From NCBI RefSeq assembly GCF_011045215.1, contig NZ_CP049202.1: a DNA stretch of 64,000 nt. One strand, given 5' to 3'. Of the stretch, positions 12 through 14,661 are shown piece after piece; the stretch's first letter is position 1, and every line of letters starts with the position of its first letter. The stretch comes from Escherichia coli (GTDB taxonomy: Bacteria; Pseudomonadota; Gammaproteobacteria; Enterobacterales; Enterobacteriaceae). The position numbers and the translations under genes were made by a program. Below the pieces are notes generated by a model. The model had not been told where the DNA came from and did not search any database. It was given only the letters and a program-made list of their open reading frames with translations.

Positions 12-635
12 ATGCAGGCTAACCAGCAGATATTCTTTTTATCCGACGGCGCGGATAATCTGAGGGAACTGCAGTTCGGTATGTACCCTGAGTCAATTCA
101 TGTGCTTGACTGGTTTCATATTACGATGAGGCTGACGGTGTTAATGCAGTATGCAAAGGGACTGCAGGCATCAGATCCAGCGACGGGCAGTAAGGTGTTA
201 TCGCTTCTGGAAAGCAGTAAACGATACATCTGGCACGGTAATGTTGCCACTGCACTGGATCGTATTGACGATTGCGTTATGTACTGTGATGACCCTGAAC
301 TCAACTATGCAAACCTGAAAGCCCTGCAAAAACAGCTGGATGAGATGTATACCTACATCCGTAATAATCAGATGATGATCCCAAACTACGGAGAAATGCG
401 CCGGTATGGTGAGCCAGTTTCAACAGCATTTGTAGAGTCAACAATCAACGAAGTGATCGCCCGACGAATGGCCAAAAAGCAGCAGATGCAGTGGAGTAGA
501 AAGGGGGCGCATTATTTGTTACAGACCAGAACTGCAGTCCTGAATAACGAACTACAGGACAAATTCGCCAGTTGGTATCCCGGTTGTACGACAGACGCTC
601 AGAGTAGAGGGACGTTATCCGCGATGGCAGCATAG
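12..635 (+). mobile_element. IS-element DDE transposase, C-terminal portion (ORF may run off the window start; family not resolved)
   Basis: 207-aa ORF with transposase-like composition (FLSDGADN, HVLDWFH motifs); sits inside a Tn3-family tnpA remnant. Confidence 0.45.
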
Positions 636-655
636 CTACGGCCCCAAGGTTTTTC

Positions 656-877
656 ATGCTCTCCATCTCCAACGCGATCGTTTATTACAACTCGGCGATC
701 CTGTCACGTTTGCTGAAGCGACTGGAAACAGAAGGTAATGAAAAGGCCATTGAGGCTCTGACCAGGATATCACCAGTAGCCTGGCAACACATTTTGCTGA
801 ATGGGCATTATACCTTTCAGAACAGTAATGAACTTATTGACCTGGATACATTGGTAGTCGGTTTAAAACTGGGATAG
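656..877 (+). pseudogene. Tn3-family transposase TnpA, C-terminal remnant
   Basis: 73-aa ORF matching the extreme C-terminus of Tn3-family TnpA as recalled (NAIVYYNS...ISPVAWQHILLNGHY); far too short to be functional. Confidence 0.6.
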
Positions 878-910
878 CGGAAATTTCGGCGGTTCCGGCG
901 TAGAACCCCG
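873..910. repeat. putative Tn3-family terminal inverted repeat (GGGG outer end on minus strand)
   Basis: tnpA remnant ends inside it; minus strand reads GGGGTTCTACGCCGGAACCGCC... Confidence 0.3.
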
Positions 911-1031
911 AGTAGACCCACTAAGTGATATCGGAGATATTGAGTCCGAATATGACGGTTAACAACATGATAAATAATGGTTTTTATGCTAAGAGTGAGA
1001 CTTTTGGAGGAAATGGGCGCAGAACCCCAAA

Positions 1032-1769
1032 TTAAGAAACTCTGCTTCTTTGATAAAGCTGGCTGATTATACTTACAACAGCTATACTTTTAGTTTTCTC
1101 CAAAAACTCTTCAGGCACAAATTTTTCTGAACTAAGTTCATTTTGGAGTAATGTAACAATCCTTGCTGTTTTATCTGCATATTTTTGCCATTCATTTTTT
1201 AATTCCTTAACACTCTCCTTACGCAATTCAATATCTGCATTAAGTTCGTTAACTGTCATTTTCAAAATTGATATGCTTCTCTCCAGTTGCTCATACTCAG
1301 ATTTAAGCAAAGCAGTATTAAGTTTTTCACGTTTTGCTATCTCTTCCTGCATCACCAGTTTTGTATCCTGGACAGATTGAGCTAACTTCTCAGCATTTAT
1401 CGCTTCCACTTTTTTATCTGCCGTTTCCTTCTGCATCTCATATTCAGCTATCAATGACTTTTTAAATCCTTCACGCTCCTTTGCTTCTAAATATCGTTTT
1501 GTCCATGCAATCCCATAATTTAAATATGGTGATATGACGGACAGAAAAATGCCTACTGTGACAGGAGCTACTAAATACAACCAATAGAACTTTTCAGCAC
1601 TTGTGATTTGCTCTATACGGGTAGTCACTGATGATTTACTCATAAACAGGATAGCCAGGTTTTGCCAGTTAAAGCCACACCATGAAAGGGTTATGTATCC
1701 CCATAATGGCTTTTTCAGACGCTCCTTAACAACGTCGTTTACAGAATCTGTGATTGACTCATTATTCAT
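1032..1769 (-). CDS. hypothetical protein, two predicted TM helices plus long coiled-coil
   Basis: 245-aa ORF in an AT-rich stretch; hydrophobic segments near N-terminus, then E/K/L/Q-rich heptad-like region. Confidence 0.55.
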   Translation of the reverse strand: MNNESITDSVNDVVKERLKKPLWGYITLSWCGFNWQNLAILFMSKSSVTTRIEQITSAEKFYWLYLVAPVTVGIFLSVISPYLNYGIAWTKRYLEAKEREGFKKSLIAEYEMQKETADKKVEAINAEKLAQSVQDTKLVMQEEIAKREKLNTALLKSEYEQLERSISILKMTVNELNADIELRKESVKELKNEWQKYADKTARIVTLLQNELSSEKFVPEEFLEKTKSIAVVSIISQLYQRSRVS

Positions 1770-1846
1770 TTAGAAATCCCCCTTTAACTTTGTCTCTATC
1801 ACTTACAGGAAAAGAGCCGTCGGAAAGAAAACTGCTGATTGAGATA

Positions 1847-2140
1847 TTATTTCATTCGCTCACTGGCAATATTATAAACGTTACACCGCTCTCGTTTCCC
1901 TACAGCAATCACCCATATAACAATTTCTTCATCAATGACCTTATAAATAAGCCTAAACCCAGATGCTCTCAGTTTTATTTTAAAACATCCAGCTAGATCA
2001 CCATGAAGCCTGGCAGCACCAGTGTAAGGATTATGCTGTAGTTTTCTGAGTTTCTTTTTAAACTGGTCACGTATTGTCTTGTCCAGCTTATTCCACTCTT
2101 TAAGGGCCCTTTCGTCAAAGTCGATATTAAAGGTCATCAA
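1847..2140 (-). CDS. RelE/ParE-family toxin (type II TA)
   Basis: 97-aa basic ORF with RelE/StbE-like sequence, overlapping the stop of the upstream antitoxin ORF. Confidence 0.7.
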   Translation of the reverse strand: MMTFNIDFDERALKEWNKLDKTIRDQFKKKLRKLQHNPYTGAARLHGDLAGCFKIKLRASGFRLIYKVIDEEIVIWVIAVGKRERCNVYNIASERMK

Positions 2141-2381
2141 TATTCACCCTGATGCGTCTGGCAGGATTTTTCAGTCGTTCTCTGACAATATTCAGAATAT
2201 CTTCGTCCTCATCATTATCACTGACAACAACAGACACTTCATTGAAAGGGAGTTTTTCATTTTCAGCGACATAACGGAGAAAAAGGCGGAGAGCTTCTGA
2301 AGGTGAAAGATTGAGCTTTTCGAAGACCTGCCAGGCATTTTTCTTCAGTTCTTCATCGACACGAATTTGAACAGTACTCAT
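2127..2381 (-). CDS. RelB/StbD-family antitoxin
   Basis: internal ATG at 2381 gives 84 aa (MSTVQIRVDEELKK...) with acidic C-terminus; overlaps toxin start. Confidence 0.65.
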   Translation of the reverse strand: MSTVQIRVDEELKKNAWQVFEKLNLSPSEALRLFLRYVAENEKLPFNEVSVVVSDNDEDEDILNIVRERLKNPARRIRVNIDDL

Positions 2382-3083
2382 GATAATACTCCGGTAATAA
2401 AGTATGCAGGCAGTATATACGTGAACAGATGTAATGACAAATGTATTGACATGTGACCTATGCCGCGTCAGCGGCATGGAAGGCGGCACTCCGTTGTTTC
2501 ATGTGATACTGGTGTAAAACCGCCGAAGCCCGGCGTAAGCCGGTACTGATTGACAGATTTCACCTTACCCATCCCCAGCCCTGCCAGACTATACCCGCTT
2601 TCAGCTATGAGAGAGCTTCTGTGCGCGGTCGGAGTGGTCCCGACGAGGGTTTACCCGAAGTCGGGGCGTATCTCCGCGTTAGCGGGCCGTCAGGGCCGCT
2701 TACGAGCGTGTACACGATACGTCCAGCCAGAAGACTGACAGCGATGATGATGTAGTTACAACATTCATAATTAAAAGCGACTCTGTTCCGGCCCTTTGGG
2801 CCGGGGCGGGGCCGCTTTTCAGTTATGAGGGATGGGCACGGTGTTTCAGAACTGTGTCTGTCGGGGCCCGCCGCTTGCGGTGGGAGGTGCTTTTAAATTC
2901 TGAGCGGCGCGGCTTTGGCCGCTGCAAGCGAAGGCCTTTTTGTATTTGTTCATAGACGTTTCAGAGATAAAGACTTTCCCTGCGGTGGAACAACGCAGGG
3001 GATTAAATGAAGGGGGTAAGACTATATTGCAGGTTTGCTGTTTCAGGTTTGCAGCTTCTTAAAGTTCTTTGTTTGCGGATTTA

Positions 3084-3092
3084 TGTGGATAA
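3084..3092 (-). promoter_or_regulatory. DnaA box (TTATCCACA on minus strand) in putative oriR
   Basis: plus strand reads TGTGGATAA, about 165 bp downstream of the 342-aa rep ORF stop, as in R1/R100-type origins. Confidence 0.5.
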
Positions 3093-3210
3093 CTGAAACG
3101 ACGTGGCCACGTTCTGACGACCGGTGAGAGATTTTATGGCCGTGTATGGACGGATGTGGGGATTTCAGGTGGTTACGGGGGATTTCTGGCCGGACAGAAC
3201 CTGCGCCAAA

Positions 3211-3225
3211 AGCCCCGAAGGGGCT
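3211..3225 (-). terminator. rho-independent terminator-like hairpin after the rep ORF
   Basis: AGCCCC-GAA-GGGGCT stem followed by a U-run on the minus strand, 35 bp after the stop at 3259. Confidence 0.5.
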
Positions 3226-3258
3226 GGCGATGATTCAGTGCTGAAGGAATGGTGTTGT

Positions 3259-4287
3259 CTAGTGCGGTGGCGGGGCAGCCAGCGTCAGTTCAAGCTGACG
3301 CAACTCCCTGATGGCCAGTCGCTTCAGATGGTCATCGGAACAAAAATAGGCTTCATCCGGCGGCAGACGCTTCCTGAGATACTCTGCCATCTCATGAATC
3401 TGCTGGTCGGCAGGCAGTTTCTTCAGGCGATTAGCACGCTTACAGGCTGCAGCTTTCGCCCGACGGTGTTTCAGCGCATCCTGGCTGCGCTGCAGATACC
3501 AGCGTTTTCTGGCCGCATGTACGGAGATATCTTCATCCTCACGCAGTACACCTTCCCGGATGAGCTGCTGGCGGATTTCACTTTCACGCAGCCGCTTCTG
3601 CTGCTGTTCGTGAAGTTTAACCATATCGACGCCCAGCATCTGCCACCCTGCCGGTGTTATCCAGACATAGCGCGGCAGACGCTGGCGGGTTTCACGGTCC
3701 CACATCGTTTCTTCCGACACACCCAGCACACCAAAACGTACCTGTTCGGTCAGCAGACGGGAAAGCCGGGAGACCGTCACTTCCAGTTCCGGAATAACCT
3801 TCCCCTTGCTGTCTTTCGGGCTGATTTCTCTGGCCAGACGGGAAACACTCATGCCTACGGTATGTGTGCCCGCATCACTGAAGCTGACCAGAACCGGCCA
3901 GATGGCATCGAGGAGGCGTTGTTTTTCCGGACGGAAAGCATATTTGCGACCGGCGAACGTCCGTTTCTGCACGTAAAAAGGATGCAGAGACATGTGCATG
4001 CGCAGGCTCTGTTCGCCAGTCACCGGGTCCTTTTTCACCAGGCGGTGATAAGCGTGCCCAAGCTGCCCGCTCAGCGCCTTATAGCGCGCAGGACGATACC
4101 AGGTCGGATTTTCGCATTTGGGTTTAGTGGAGTGCTCACCACGACGACGCTTTGTGCGCTTCCTTTCCGGTTCAACCAGGAAAGTGGTCGCCCTTCCCGC
4201 TTCATAATCTTCCCAGAAACGGATTTGCTCTTCGGGAGGCAACTGAGCCCAGTGGCCTGGACGGGTATTTTTAATCACCATACCCAC
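3259..4287 (-). CDS. replication-initiator-like ORF (342 aa, basic); relationship to RepA1 unresolved
   Basis: long ORF ending at the terminator and DnaA box; overlaps the RepA1-like ORF in another reading frame; opposite-strand 430-aa ORF judged a shadow. Confidence 0.45.
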
Positions 4288-5104: not shown

Positions 5105-5362
5105 TCACGAAATCGCTCTGCGTTTCAGCTCTGATTCAATCAGTTTTTCAAGCATCTGCGCCTGGGTAATACCTTCCTCATCCGCCAGTTCACTCAGCCT
5201 GTCTTTTAACCGGGCCTGGATAACCGCATGAAAAGCCTTATGAGTGTTGCTTCTGCGAGCCAGAGAAGCTCTTTGTCTCTCTCTGGCCGGAACAGGGTTA
5301 CCTTTCCGGTATGCACGCTTAGTGCCTGATGAGGAAGTCACTGCATTTTCTGTCTGCGGCAT
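5105..5362 (-). CDS. repA2: CopB/RepA2 copy-number repressor
   Basis: 85 aa; [11 protein letters not shown]...[16 protein letters not shown] resembles R100/R1 CopB as recalled; sits upstream of repA1. Confidence 0.8.
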
Positions 5363-5669: not shown

Positions 5670-6152
5670 TCAGACTTTATAAAATAAGGTGTCAGGTGCC
5701 ACAACTGACTGGACAAAACCAAAACGCTCATAAAACGCTCTGGCGTCATCATCAATTGCATGCACCATAACCGCCTTAACGCCAACCTGTTCAGCCACAT
5801 TTACAACCCGGTGAATAGCATCACTCAGCAGCCATTTACCGAAACCATGCCCCTGGGTACAAACATCAACAGCCAGACGCCCTAACAGAACAACAGGAAC
5901 AGGATTAGGCATGTTATGCCGCAAACTGCGCCCAAGCTCGGCATGTGTGACGGAACCCGTAGCTAATGAGTAGAACCCCACAACACGTAAAGTCCCCTCC
6001 AGGCAAATAACGAACGTGCGGGAAGCATTGAGCATCTGGTTTTTCATAGCCCGACCACGTAACCAGTTACTTAGCACCTCATTTCCACAGTCAAATGGCT
6101 GAAGTATATGCTCATCCGTCAGCAATGCCGGCGCGGTGACATTTATTTCCAT
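5670..6152 (-). CDS. GNAT-family acetyltransferase toxin (TacT/AtaT-like)
   Basis: 160 aa with GNAT-like core; overlaps the stop of an upstream DUF1778-like antitoxin ORF. Confidence 0.7.
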   Translation of the reverse strand: MEINVTAPALLTDEHILQPFDCGNEVLSNWLRGRAMKNQMLNASRTFVICLEGTLRVVGFYSLATGSVTHAELGRSLRHNMPNPVPVVLLGRLAVDVCTQGHGFGKWLLSDAIHRVVNVAEQVGVKAVMVHAIDDDARAFYERFGFVQSVVAPDTLFYKV

Positions 6153-12300: not shown

Positions 12301-14661
12301 CTTCGCACTGTCGCTGACGGAATGCCCGGGCGTTTCCACCCAGCCGTTCTCCAGCTTCAGTGCCGTGAACGGTGAATCAGCCACAGGCAGGGTGGCCGGT
12401 TCAGCCCGCCCCGGCACAACAACCGTCATCGCATCTTCACTGACGGATGCCACCTGCAGGCGGTCACCGCCGGAGACGCGGAGTCCGGGGATTTGTCCCG
12501 TCACCCTCAGACGCTCGCCGTCTGCCACCGGCATTTTTTCCGGCCGGAACAGCGACCAGCTGCTGTCCAGAGAAGAAATACGCACCACCTGCGTTTCACC
12601 CTGCGCATCCCGCAGGGTCAGGCTGTGACTCTGCGCCGTCACCCGGTCTATCACATAGCGGTCATGACTGCGTGTCTCCGGGTTCCACTGCTCCATCACC
12701 ATCCCCGGGCGGTACATATCCCGCAGATAACGGCTCCGGCTGTCCAGCCAGACCGGTGACAGGGCGGTCATGGTTACTTCCGGGTGTCCGAGCACGCCCT
12801 GTGTTTTCAGCTCACTGCGAATGGCCTGTGTCAGTATGGCCTGTTCCCGTACCCCGCTGACCTGTGCCACGCTCTCTTCTCCGGCTTTCACGCTGGCCGC
12901 AAAATCTCCTGCCAGCCGGGCATAGCGGACATTACGGTCCGGTTCACTGATGATGGTGGCCGGTCGCTGTTCTCCCCCCAGCCAGCGATATGTGTTCACC
13001 CCGGCATCCTTCATGGCCATCAGCGCACTGCCTGTACCGGTTCGCTGCCCGCTGTCGGTTATCAGGACCTGTACGTTATGACGTGCGGCACCGTCCAGCA
13101 GGGTTAACGTCTCTTTCAGGGAGAGTTTTTCGCCCTGGTCAACGATAACAGTACTGCCCGGCGTGAAGGCCATGCCTTCCAGCAACTGACGACGTCCGGT
13201 TATCAGCTCACCGGACAGCCGTTCATCCTGCTTCAGGTTCATCTGCGAGCGACGGTCAGCAGCGATAATCTGCACTTCCCGCCCCTGCTCCCGGGCCATC
13301 ATGACCAGTTCAGCCACCCGCTCACGCTGCCCGGCTGCACCGCCCTGCCCGGACACAATGGCCAGCGACGGACGGTCCTGTGCCAGAACACTGACCGCAT
13401 CGCTGTAACCAGCCGTCCGGGGGACACTTTTCTCCGGATGTACGGTCACCCGGTTCTGTTTCATGATGTCACGACTGAGTGCCCGGACGGACAGCTCATC
13501 GAGCACATGAATTCCTGATGTGAACAGCCCCTTCTCACGGTCGAGGGGGATGAGTTGCTCACGACTGATGGCCTCATCGATACCGGCGCGTGCCCGTTCA
13601 ATCACACCATTTTCCGGCGGCAGTATACCGACCGTTCTGGCCAGCACGTCCGTATACGTGAACTGCACTTTTCGTTCACTTAATCCGGCAATGGCCTGTG
13701 TCACCGCCTGCTGCACATCCGGCCCCTCCAGTGAAACAGCCCCGGGCGCCTGCGTGCGGGTCTCTGCCCGTTGCTCCGCCGCGTCACGATACGCCCGGAT
13801 ATCGAACCCGGTTTCCTTCAGTGTCTGCATCCACTCGGTCATTTTGATTTCAGGATCGACGTGCTGTTTGGATTTTCGCGTATCCAGTGCTGCCACATCC
13901 CGGGATTTCAGCGAGGCGTCTTCCCCGACGGCCTCCCTGATAGCCTGCGAACGACTGGAAAAGGCCTCCACCGGTACGCCCGGCATCTCCCACATCCCGT
14001 GCTTACCGACCACTTCGGTTTCATAGCCCAGCGCCTCAACCTGCTCTTTCAGCTTTTCCCGGTAGAGTCTGCCAAAGGCAATCTGATTAGCGTACACATT
14101 CTCAATGAACCCTGTTTTTCCCACTTTGTCACTGCTCAGTGTCTTCCACTCGCCGTTATGCTGTGTAACATTGGCCACCACCGCATGCGTGTGTAACTGT
14201 GGTTCCTGATCGCGACTGGTGTCGTGATTAAAAAGCGCCATCACCAGATTACCGGTCAGCACCGTTTCTGACTGTCCGTCCGTCATAACCCGTGTGGAGG
14301 CCAGCGCCTCCACCTGACGGACAGCAAAATCCACGGCCTGGTTATGTGCATCAATAAGACGTTTATCACCGCCTAACATGGCCATCACGGAGACACTTTT
14401 GGGGGCGGAGAAGGTCAGGTCGTAGCCGGGACGATGCTTATTACTGCCATCCTGCATGCGGCTTAAATCCGCTCCGTCCGGCAGCCTGCCCTCCAGAAGA
14501 CGGGTAAAAACATCCTTATCGACACTGCCCTGCAGCCCCAGCTGTTCAGCCCCCCTGCCGGCCCAGCGTTCTCCCATGCTGCCCAGCACATAGTAATTAT
14601 CCTTGTCGGTATAATAGTTACCGGCACTTCCGGCCGATCTGACCTGCGCGATACTCATCAT
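9391..14661 (-). CDS. traI: TraI relaxase/helicase
   Basis: 1756-aa ORF, same length as F TraI; N-terminal relaxase region and P-loop helicase region. Confidence 0.95.
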   Translation of the reverse strand: MMSIAQVRSAGSAGNYYTDKDNYYVLGSMGERWAGRGAEQLGLQGSVDKDVFTRLLEGRLPDGADLSRMQDGSNKHRPGYDLTFSAPKSVSVMAMLGGDKRLIDAHNQAVDFAVRQVEALASTRVMTDGQSETVLTGNLVMALFNHDTSRDQEPQLHTHAVVANVTQHNGEWKTLSSDKVGKTGFIENVYANQIAFGRLYREKLKEQVEALGYETEVVGKHGMWEMPGVPVEAFSSRSQAIREAVGEDASLKSRDVAALDTRKSKQHVDPEIKMTEWMQTLKETGFDIRAYRDAAEQRAETRTQAPGAVSLEGPDVQQAVTQAIAGLSERKVQFTYTDVLARTVGILPPENGVIERARAGIDEAISREQLIPLDREKGLFTSGIHVLDELSVRALSRDIMKQNRVTVHPEKSVPRTAGYSDAVSVLAQDRPSLAIVSGQGGAAGQRERVAELVMMAREQGREVQIIAADRRSQMNLKQDERLSGELITGRRQLLEGMAFTPGSTVIVDQGEKLSLKETLTLLDGAARHNVQVLITDSGQRTGTGSALMAMKDAGVNTYRWLGGEQRPATIISEPDRNVRYARLAGDFAASVKAGEESVAQVSGVREQAILTQAIRSELKTQGVLGHPEVTMTALSPVWLDSRSRYLRDMYRPGMVMEQWNPETRSHDRYVIDRVTAQSHSLTLRDAQGETQVVRISSLDSSWSLFRPEKMPVADGERLRVTGQIPGLRVSGGDRLQVASVSEDAMTVVVPGRAEPATLPVADSPFTALKLENGWVETPGHSVSDSAKVFASVTQMAMDNATLNGLARSGRDVRLYSSLDETRTAEKLARHPSFTVVSEQIKARAGETSLETAISHQKSALHTPAQQAIHLALPVVESKNLAFSHVDLLTEAKSFAAEGTSFADLGREIDAQIKRGDLLHVDVAKGYGTDLLVSRASYEAEKSIIRHILEGKEAVTPLMERVPGELMEKLTSGQRAATRMILETSDRFTVVQGYAGVGKTTQFRAVMSAVNMLPESERPRVVGLGPTHRAVGEMRSAGVDAQTLASFLHDTQLQQRSGETPDFSNTLFLLDESSMVGNTDMARAYALIAAGGGRAVASGDTDQLQAIAPGQPFRLQQTRSAADVAIMKEIVRQTPELREAVYSLINRDVERALSGLESVKPSQVPRQEGAWVPEHSVTEFSHSQEAKLAEAQQKAMLKGEAFPDIPMTLYEAIVRDYTGRTPEAREQTLIVTHLNEDRRVLNSMIHDAREKAGELGKEQVMVPVLNTANIRDGELRRLSTWETHRDALVLVDNVYHRIAGISKGDGLITLQDAEGNTRLISPREAVAEGVTLYTPDTIRVGTGDRMRFTKSDRERGYVANSVWTVTAVSGDSVTLSDGLQTRVIRPGQEQAEQHIDLAYAITAHGAQGASETFAIALEGTEGGRKQMAGFESAYVALSRMKQHVQVYTDDRQGWTDAINNAVQKGTAHDVLEPKADREVMNAERLFSTARELRDVAAGRAVLRQAGLAGGDSPARFIAPGRKYPQPYVALPAFDRNGKSAGIWLNPLTTDDGNGLRGFSGEGRVKGSGDAQFVALQGSRNGESLLADNMQDGVRIARDNPDSGVVVRIAGEGRPWNPGAITGGRVWGDIPDNSVQPGAGNGEPVTAEVLAQRQAEEAIRRETERRADEIVRKMAENKPDLPDGKTEQAVREIAGQERDRAAITEREAALPESVLREPQRVREAVREVARENLLQERLQQMERDMVRDLQKEKTLGGD

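Follow-up and report, generated by a model that had tools for sequence, protein, structure and literature searches.

What might a small membrane protein do on an Escherichia coli plasmid when its gene is located between a relBE toxin-antitoxin operon and the remains of transposons? The stretch of DNA analysed here comprises 64,000 nucleotides and is referred to as the window. The protein in question has 245 amino acids, and we asked where its gene came from, to which proteins it is related and in which surroundings these relatives occur.

Origin of the plasmid gene

The gene and the elements next to it are arranged as follows:

656-909, plus strand: second Tn3-family element, consisting of a C-terminal tnpA fragment (656-877) and a terminal repeat (~872-909)
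910-1028: 119-bp transposon end fragment, which matches termini of Tn3-family elements from E. coli plasmids with 100% identity
991-1028: Tn3-family terminal inverted repeat seen in the sequence (GGGGTTCTGCGCCC...), with its tip at 1028, 3 nt past the stop codon of the ORF
1032-1769, minus strand: intact ORF of 245 amino acids with an ATG start and 245 uninterrupted codons, according to the ORF list
1777-1782, minus strand: Shine-Dalgarno sequence GGGGGA, 7 nt 5' of the ORF start
1847-2137, minus strand: relE toxin gene (TIGR02385, E=3.4e-9), 77 nt upstream of the ORF
2127-2381, minus strand: relB antitoxin gene (NF008412, E=7e-35)

The GC content of the ORF is 35.9% (GC3 32.7%), whereas the window as a whole has 50.5%. 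Along the sequence, a trough of 33-40% GC spans positions ~900-2400. In comparison to homologues from E. coli and Citrobacter, the overall dN/dS ratio of the ORF is 0.24-0.25, with values of 0.12-0.19 within residues 1-95, 0.05-0.07 within residues 96-132 and 0.34-0.35 in the tail. The overall ratio and the higher values in the tail indicate that the gene encodes a functional protein whose C-terminus is less constrained, and the ORF at 1032-1769 is a real gene under purifying selection. The initial annotation of this locus had described a 245-aa protein at exactly these coordinates, in an AT-rich islet between a transposon remnant and a RelE/RelB pair. All of this was confirmed, with the gene on the minus strand, relBE upstream and the Tn3-type repeat 3 nt past the stop codon. 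Two features had escaped it, namely that the islet stops precisely where a transposon repeat starts and that the gene on the plasmid is a cassette without promoter, excised from a prophage-type locus, as set out below.

The relBE side of the locus is matched by more than 5,000 IncF-type plasmids, but all matches end at ~1842-1847 and none of them covers the ORF. A gene of the IncF backbone was rejected, because the plasmid homology halts at the stop codon of relE. Other plasmids possess different cargo downstream of the relBE pair, for example an autotransporter. The arrangement of relBE and the ORF occurred in 0 of 72,556 PLSDB plasmids. Apart from the window it was seen in no more than two assemblies, both from short reads (contigs L005 and L006), in which a 1.9-kb unit corresponding to window positions 665-2543 is present with ~99% identity and with different flanks.

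In E. coli chromosomes, relatives of the ORF that are detectable at the DNA level (83% identity) are located between tonB and yciI, which is the attachment site of phage phi80 (PMC5727415). In these copies the gene is located at the margin of a prophage or of what is left of one, where it converges with a 4-bp overlap on the gene of a small serine recombinase, a DNA invertase (phrog_125, E=1e-56). In the window the native stop codon is kept and the similarity to the relatives ends exactly at the transposon repeat, as seen in the alignment. The invertase gene, which is the usual downstream neighbour, is replaced by the Tn3 repeat, and of a conserved upstream region of ~130 nt only ~25 nt survive (alignment with L001, L003 and L007). 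From the end of the similarity at the Tn3 repeat and from the ~25 nt left upstream, it follows that the acquired piece extends over ~1029-1795 and consists of the ORF with its ribosome-binding site.

The Tn3 repeats at 656-1028 are the scar of a nested or sequential insertion, which determines where the acquired gene ends on its 3' side. The two repeats have the same orientation and abut, with their tips at 909 and 1028. Of one element, nothing but the outer 119-bp fragment (910-1028) is left, and the inner repeat goes with the tnpA fragment at 656-877. To the left of position 665 the window contains a transposase-like ORF (12-635), which is cut off by the window edge.

Since its native upstream region is lost, the plasmid copy may be silent. 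If it is expressed at all, it would probably be transcribed by read-through from the autoregulated relBE promoter. A sequence scan of the 77-nt gap between relE and the ORF revealed no predicted terminator and no promoter-like site, and the sole good promoter candidate upstream of the ORF is located before relB (2412-2440; 10/12 matches in the scan).

Some further observations concern the surroundings. Beyond its match to the window, contig L005 encodes AbiD (E=2.8e-46) and an Aga-type Helical-REase (E=1.3e-26); as L005 and the window differ to the left of position 665, these genes were not attributed to the window. Beside the invertase gene, the loci L001 (10251-11991) and L007 (8735-10535) contain ~1.1-1.2 kb without any annotated or called gene, and in L001 this stretch lies between a large serine recombinase and the invertase. 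An exchange of the 3' end of the ORF by the invertase was considered and rejected, as the inverted repeats are only short and weak and none of them lies within the ORF. No structured RNA was detected within window positions 600-3300. Elsewhere in the window, near the replication region, a 160-aa ORF (5670-6152, minus strand) has by eye the look of a GNAT-type acetyltransferase and is accompanied by an 85-aa ORF on the same strand (5105-5362). These two ORFs may represent another toxin-antitoxin-like pair.

Architecture and family of the protein

A structure prediction, as suggested in the initial annotation, was performed with AlphaFold2 using the family alignment as input (pLDDT 90.2). The model of the window protein consists of a helix at residues 3-19, a kinked pair of helices (21-33/35-43), a helix at 48-56, a continuous helix at 61-213 and a helix at 219-243. 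On the minus strand, the following segments were distinguished:

1713-1763: residues 3-19, N-terminal charged or amphipathic helix with the invariant R17, according to AlphaFold2 and the alignment
1641-1709: residues 21-43, first hydrophobic helix, kinked at the invariant N34-W35
1521-1589: residues 61-83, main transmembrane helix with the conserved P69, G73 and P81 (Kyte-Doolittle 1.5-2.0)
1374-1520: residues 84-132, juxtamembrane stalk, highly conserved within the close family
1041-1373: residues 133-243, variable coiled-coil tail (dN/dS 0.34-0.55), delimited by the identity of the N- versus the C-terminal part

A membrane module of ~95 residues runs directly into a helical stalk of ~130 residues, the distal half of which is hypervariable. 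The long, heptad-like charged region noticed previously is found again as the single helix 61-213 of the model, and the tail matches generic coiled coils. The two transmembrane helices proposed for the N-terminus were only partly upheld. Residues 61-83 are strongly hydrophobic, with a Kyte-Doolittle peak of 1.98, and the running Kyte-Doolittle mean of the window protein exceeds 1.0 only at residues 61-88. Residues 21-43, in contrast, are less hydrophobic and kinked, and a second transmembrane helix at this position is plausible. As this segment contains the conserved polar residues N34, Q36 and N37, it might form a re-entrant hairpin instead of crossing the membrane. Its motifs in the alignment are PLWGYI, SWxGFNWxN and LFMS. 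Across the family both segments are consistently hydrophobic (Kyte-Doolittle means of 1.33 for the first and 1.55 for the second) and are separated by a loop with a fixed length of 17-18 residues. The K/R values are 3.4 for the N-terminus, 2.5 for the loop and 3.8 behind the transmembrane helix. This modest positive-inside signal suggests that both termini, and hence the stalk, are cytoplasmic; as far as can be judged from the sequence, the tail is probably located inside the cell.

The protein belongs, according to profile searches, to a large phage-associated superfamily, which the initial annotation had not recognised. Matches were obtained to phrog_4780 (E=2.4e-14, residues 5-203) and phrog_13369 (E=1.2e-12, residues 5-214) as well as to phrog_35327 (E=1.9e-8), phrog_8191 (E=1.8e-7) and phrog_22645 (E=1.5e-4), and the alignments start at the N-terminus and extend through the stalk. 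All five families are annotated as 'unknown function', so that membership in the PHROG 4780/13369 superfamily tells where the protein is found and not what it does. The former statement that no family could be recognised therefore holds only for curated collections: searches of NCBIfam and PADLOC gave no significant match to the window protein, and Pfam yielded only coiled-coil noise for the protein and for 54 aligned relatives. No mention of the family was found in the literature when PHROG identifiers or accessions were used for the search. Homology to a housekeeping membrane protein, which had been named as an observation that would refute the initial proposal, was likewise not found.

A word-indexed search gave ~20 close relatives, all of which are designated 'hypothetical', and an exhaustive search extended the family to 590 representative clusters at E<=1e-3, 68 of them at E<=1e-10. 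The closest homologues share 74-77% identity with the window protein. An alignment-based scan of ~100,000 species-representative genomes detected relatives at 4 loci, which is the sparse distribution expected for an accessory gene; among the loci returned by scans of this kind, L023 was discarded as a false positive. A homologue with 38% identity was present on a 6-kb contig of a metagenome-assembled genome labelled Bacillota (L020). All other relatives seen are from Gammaproteobacteria, and the label of L020 may be a binning artefact.

When 54 diverse members were aligned, the N-terminal ~95 residues were conserved, whereas the helical tail was poorly alignable. Four residues (R17, N34, W35 and P69) are invariant and five more (P21, G24, W30, I52 and P81) nearly so, and the window protein carries all nine of them. 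The two parts of the protein also have different histories. A homologue of the C7 type (P0010, 262 aa) shares 61% overall identity with the window protein, with 86% identity over residues 1-95 and 17% after residue 133, and in megablast searches the C7-type genomes aligned over the 5' half of the ORF only. Comparing the C7 type with the window type, the N-modules are 81-85% and the C-modules 28-30% identical, while the C7-type tail shares 42-47% identity with the tails of proteins possessing more distant N-modules. This incongruence between N-modules and tails indicates that tails were exchanged between lineages by recombination.

Genomic contexts of the relatives

All of the ~20 sampled contexts of relatives are mobile or phage-derived. 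In two epsilon15-like phages the gene is inserted on the opposite strand between the genes of terminase and portal, and in a lambdoid Klebsiella phage it lies, also on the opposite strand, between the replication and nin genes. An orientation opposite to the neighbouring genes, as in these three phages, is typical of morons that are expressed in the lysogen. Other homologues are located behind ogr, where a P2-like prophage ends, in the early region of a lambdoid prophage (L027), next to integrases or, in L021, right behind a cI-type repressor on the same strand. A podophage carries its homologue on the same strand within the structural module, between a gene in scaffold position and the capsid gene. 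In P1-like phage-plasmids the homologue is situated beside higBA or beside a pair consisting of a small ORF and an HTH gene.

Beside these phage contexts, some diverged family members were detected directly behind genes with a link to defence. In L011 (7304-8741) and L024 (218-1642) the homologue follows 1 and 15 nt after a PD-T7-4-like HEPN gene (DUF4145, E~1e-13), and in L026 (2945-4914) it is located 83 nt downstream of an AbiTii gene (E=2e-39). Serine recombinases occur near these HEPN- and AbiTii-linked members. With such genes as direct upstream neighbours, the family is placed in defence islets. In these three loci, the HEPN or AbiTii gene and the family member could form a genuine two-gene system.

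A Citrobacter prophage (L007, 6813-8738) possesses tandem paralogues of 286 and 245 amino acids between the integrase and the invertase, and a paralogue from a Citrobacter prophage matches the same PHROG families as the window protein. In strain C7 (L003), a hypothetical gene of 221 amino acids (12683-13348) is located directly upstream of the C7-type homologue. This gene had no PADLOC, NCBIfam or PHROG match, and it was rejected as a family paralogue (hhalign probability 0.1%).

Putative function and comparison with known systems

The protein is regarded here as a putative inner-membrane protein of a phage moron family, which would most likely protect the carrying cell or element against phages; our confidence in this reading is about evenly balanced. 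The initial annotation had suggested a single-gene abortive-infection or exclusion protein. Among the functions considered, this guess agrees best with the genomic contexts and with a published prediction, and the function remains putative, as the evidence is circumstantial. In Table S5 of the DefensePredictor study, WP_001278968.1 is listed as 'Predicted novel defense gene' with a mean log-odds value of 6.17, in comparison to a cutoff of 4 (PMC13092281). This accession is the annotated C7-type homologue in L003, and the score is therefore that of the homologue and not of the window protein. The overall experimental validation rate of such predictions was 45%, and WP_001278968.1 is absent from the screened units in Table S6 (PMC13092281). 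The association with mobile elements is by itself a weak argument for defence, since virulence factors, envelope-modifying proteins and proteins of unknown function are encoded by morons as well.

If the protein acts in defence, the conserved membrane module would presumably be the effector and the variable tail the specificity or sensor part. In an abortive-infection-type mechanism, the tail would detect a phage product, upon which the membrane module would oligomerise and compromise the membrane. We tentatively favour such a mechanism over superinfection exclusion, a less probable alternative in which entry of the phage genome would be blocked at the inner membrane, because the variable part is probably cytoplasmic and because invariant polar and proline residues are located within the membrane. 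A more far-reaching, speculative and rather improbable proposal is that the whole family represents widespread, modular single-protein phage sensors, in which the NW hairpin and the proline-kinked transmembrane helix serve as pore or disruptor and the coiled coil as a swappable antenna. Binding of a phage protein by the antenna would then cause the membrane module to form a pore or to disrupt the membrane otherwise, and tail swapping would re-program the specificity in nature. Such sensors might act alone or in conjunction with HEPN- or RelE-type RNases, which would then form a second arm. Coiled coils diverge fast for structural reasons, however, and the variability of the tail alone is no proof of sensing.

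A role that benefits the phage and is unrelated to defence, for example in lysis timing, in envelope or lysogenic conversion or as a scaffold, with the gene as a passenger on the plasmid, appears rather unlikely. It would agree with the phage-derived nature of all contexts, with the podophage copy inside the structural module, with the lack of a functional annotation for every matched PHROG family and with a small membrane architecture that superficially resembles holins and antiholins. The gene is, however, outside all lysis cassettes seen, it lies on the opposite strand to its neighbours in three phages, and it remains intact under selection in islets and on plasmids that carry no phage genes. 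A holin or lysis protein in particular was rejected, as Pfam gave neither holin nor spanin matches and PHROG no holin match; in KO-TP1 and L027 lysis genes are located 3-5 kb from the homologue, on the opposite strand in KO-TP1. It is also conceivable, though improbable, that the plasmid copy is an inert, promoter-less remnant of a prophage end, which is not expressed or has no effect. The limits of the homology (~1029-1795), the loss of the ~130-nt upstream region, the Tn3 repeat in place of the invertase gene, the relE-ORF gap without a promoter-like site and the rarity of the arrangement all fit such a remnant. On the other hand, the reading frame, the ribosome-binding site and all family-invariant residues are intact, the 77-nt gap without a terminator permits read-through from relBE, and the 1.9-kb unit was kept at ~99% identity in different flanks. 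An inert copy on this plasmid is compatible with any function of the family.

A partnership with adjacent RNase-type toxins (RelBE, HigBA, HEPN/DUF4145 or AbiTii) in a multi-gene system would explain why such genes lie closely upstream on the same strand in several loci, with distances of 77 nt for relE, 1 and 15 nt for DUF4145 and 83 nt for AbiTii, and also upstream in the case of higBA. The lactococcal AbiT system, which consists of two genes, is a precedent (PMC3710099). Nevertheless, we consider this quite improbable: no such partner accompanies the closest homologues (74-77% identity), the morons in phages stand alone, PD-T7-4 has been described as a single defence protein, and none of the proteins matches an AbiT component of PADLOC. 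A third component of relBE was rejected for the same kind of reason, as relBE occurs on thousands of IncF plasmids without the ORF and the closest homologues have no toxin-antitoxin neighbour. The partner genes derive from unrelated families, which fits co-location on islands better than a fixed complex.

Protection against phages by a membrane-located moron protein is thus the reading that we retain, and the uncharacterised family probably performs a known kind of job. If this is true, hundreds of clusters at 50% identity, mainly from Gammaproteobacteria, would be added to the anti-phage genes of prophages and plasmids. Neither Pfam nor NCBIfam nor PADLOC contains an entry for this family, and its fold is neither solved nor recognisable. 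The two-module design would then be a tractable model of phage sensing and arrest by small membrane proteins, and the family would be relevant for the prediction of host ranges in phage therapy in E. coli, Klebsiella, Citrobacter and Salmonella. On this plasmid, a putative defence-type moron was captured behind a toxin-antitoxin operon as a cassette stripped of its own flanks, beside transposon scars. If the defence function is wrong, the gene is one more conserved hypothetical accessory gene of phages. Predicted defence genes are numerous, but the breadth of the family, its modularity and the capture of the cassette still make it a good candidate for experiments.

With regard to known systems, none of the families of defence, exclusion, holin or toxin proteins covered by the profile and hhalign comparisons showed similarity to the window protein. 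The best matches in PADLOC-DB v2 (PDC-M21B, E=0.0011; LmuB, E=0.002) were confined to the coiled-coil residues 104-224, and the relatives behaved alike. HK97 gp15 and T4 Imm are moron-type inner-membrane superinfection-exclusion proteins and are grouped with SieB of lambda and P22. Like these, the window protein is small, has N-terminal membrane helices and belongs to a family of temperate-phage accessory genes expressed from the prophage, and the placement of family members beside repressor or integrase genes, or on the opposite strand, also resembles SieB-type exclusion genes. SieB, gp15 and Imm, however, do not possess a coiled-coil stalk of ~150 residues. SieB (PF14163) was also rejected as a homologue, with no Pfam match at E<=10 and an hhalign value of 2.1% for profile A2 versus lambda SieB.

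The HEPN and AbiTii systems are connected to the family by neighbourhood. Fusions to HEPN domains are common among AbiTii homologues, and DUF4145 itself counts as one of the HEPN families (PMC3710099). PD-T7-4 combines HEPN with a zinc finger. PD-T7-4 and AbiTii are neighbours of diverged family members, whereas the window protein matches neither of them and has RelBE upstream instead; AbiTii was adjacent in 1 of ~20 contexts and absent from the window and the close homologues. The two-gene AbiT system was rejected, as PADLOC gave no AbiTi or AbiTii match for the window protein and five relatives.

A resemblance in design was seen to two systems for which abortive infection was validated in E. 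coli, namely DS-34, which consists of cI and an AbiZ-like coiled-coil/transmembrane protein, and DS-43, a Csx28-like helical protein with an N-terminal transmembrane segment (PMC13092281). Homology to either was rejected (hhalign probabilities of 0.6% for DS-34 and 0.3% for DS-43), and the domain order of DS-34 is opposite to that of the window protein, with the coiled coil at the N-terminus and the transmembrane part at the C-terminus. As in the window protein, transmembrane and coiled-coil or helical segments are joined in single small proteins in both systems. DS-34 is furthermore co-transcribed with its cI repressor, which is comparable to the family member located behind cI in L021.
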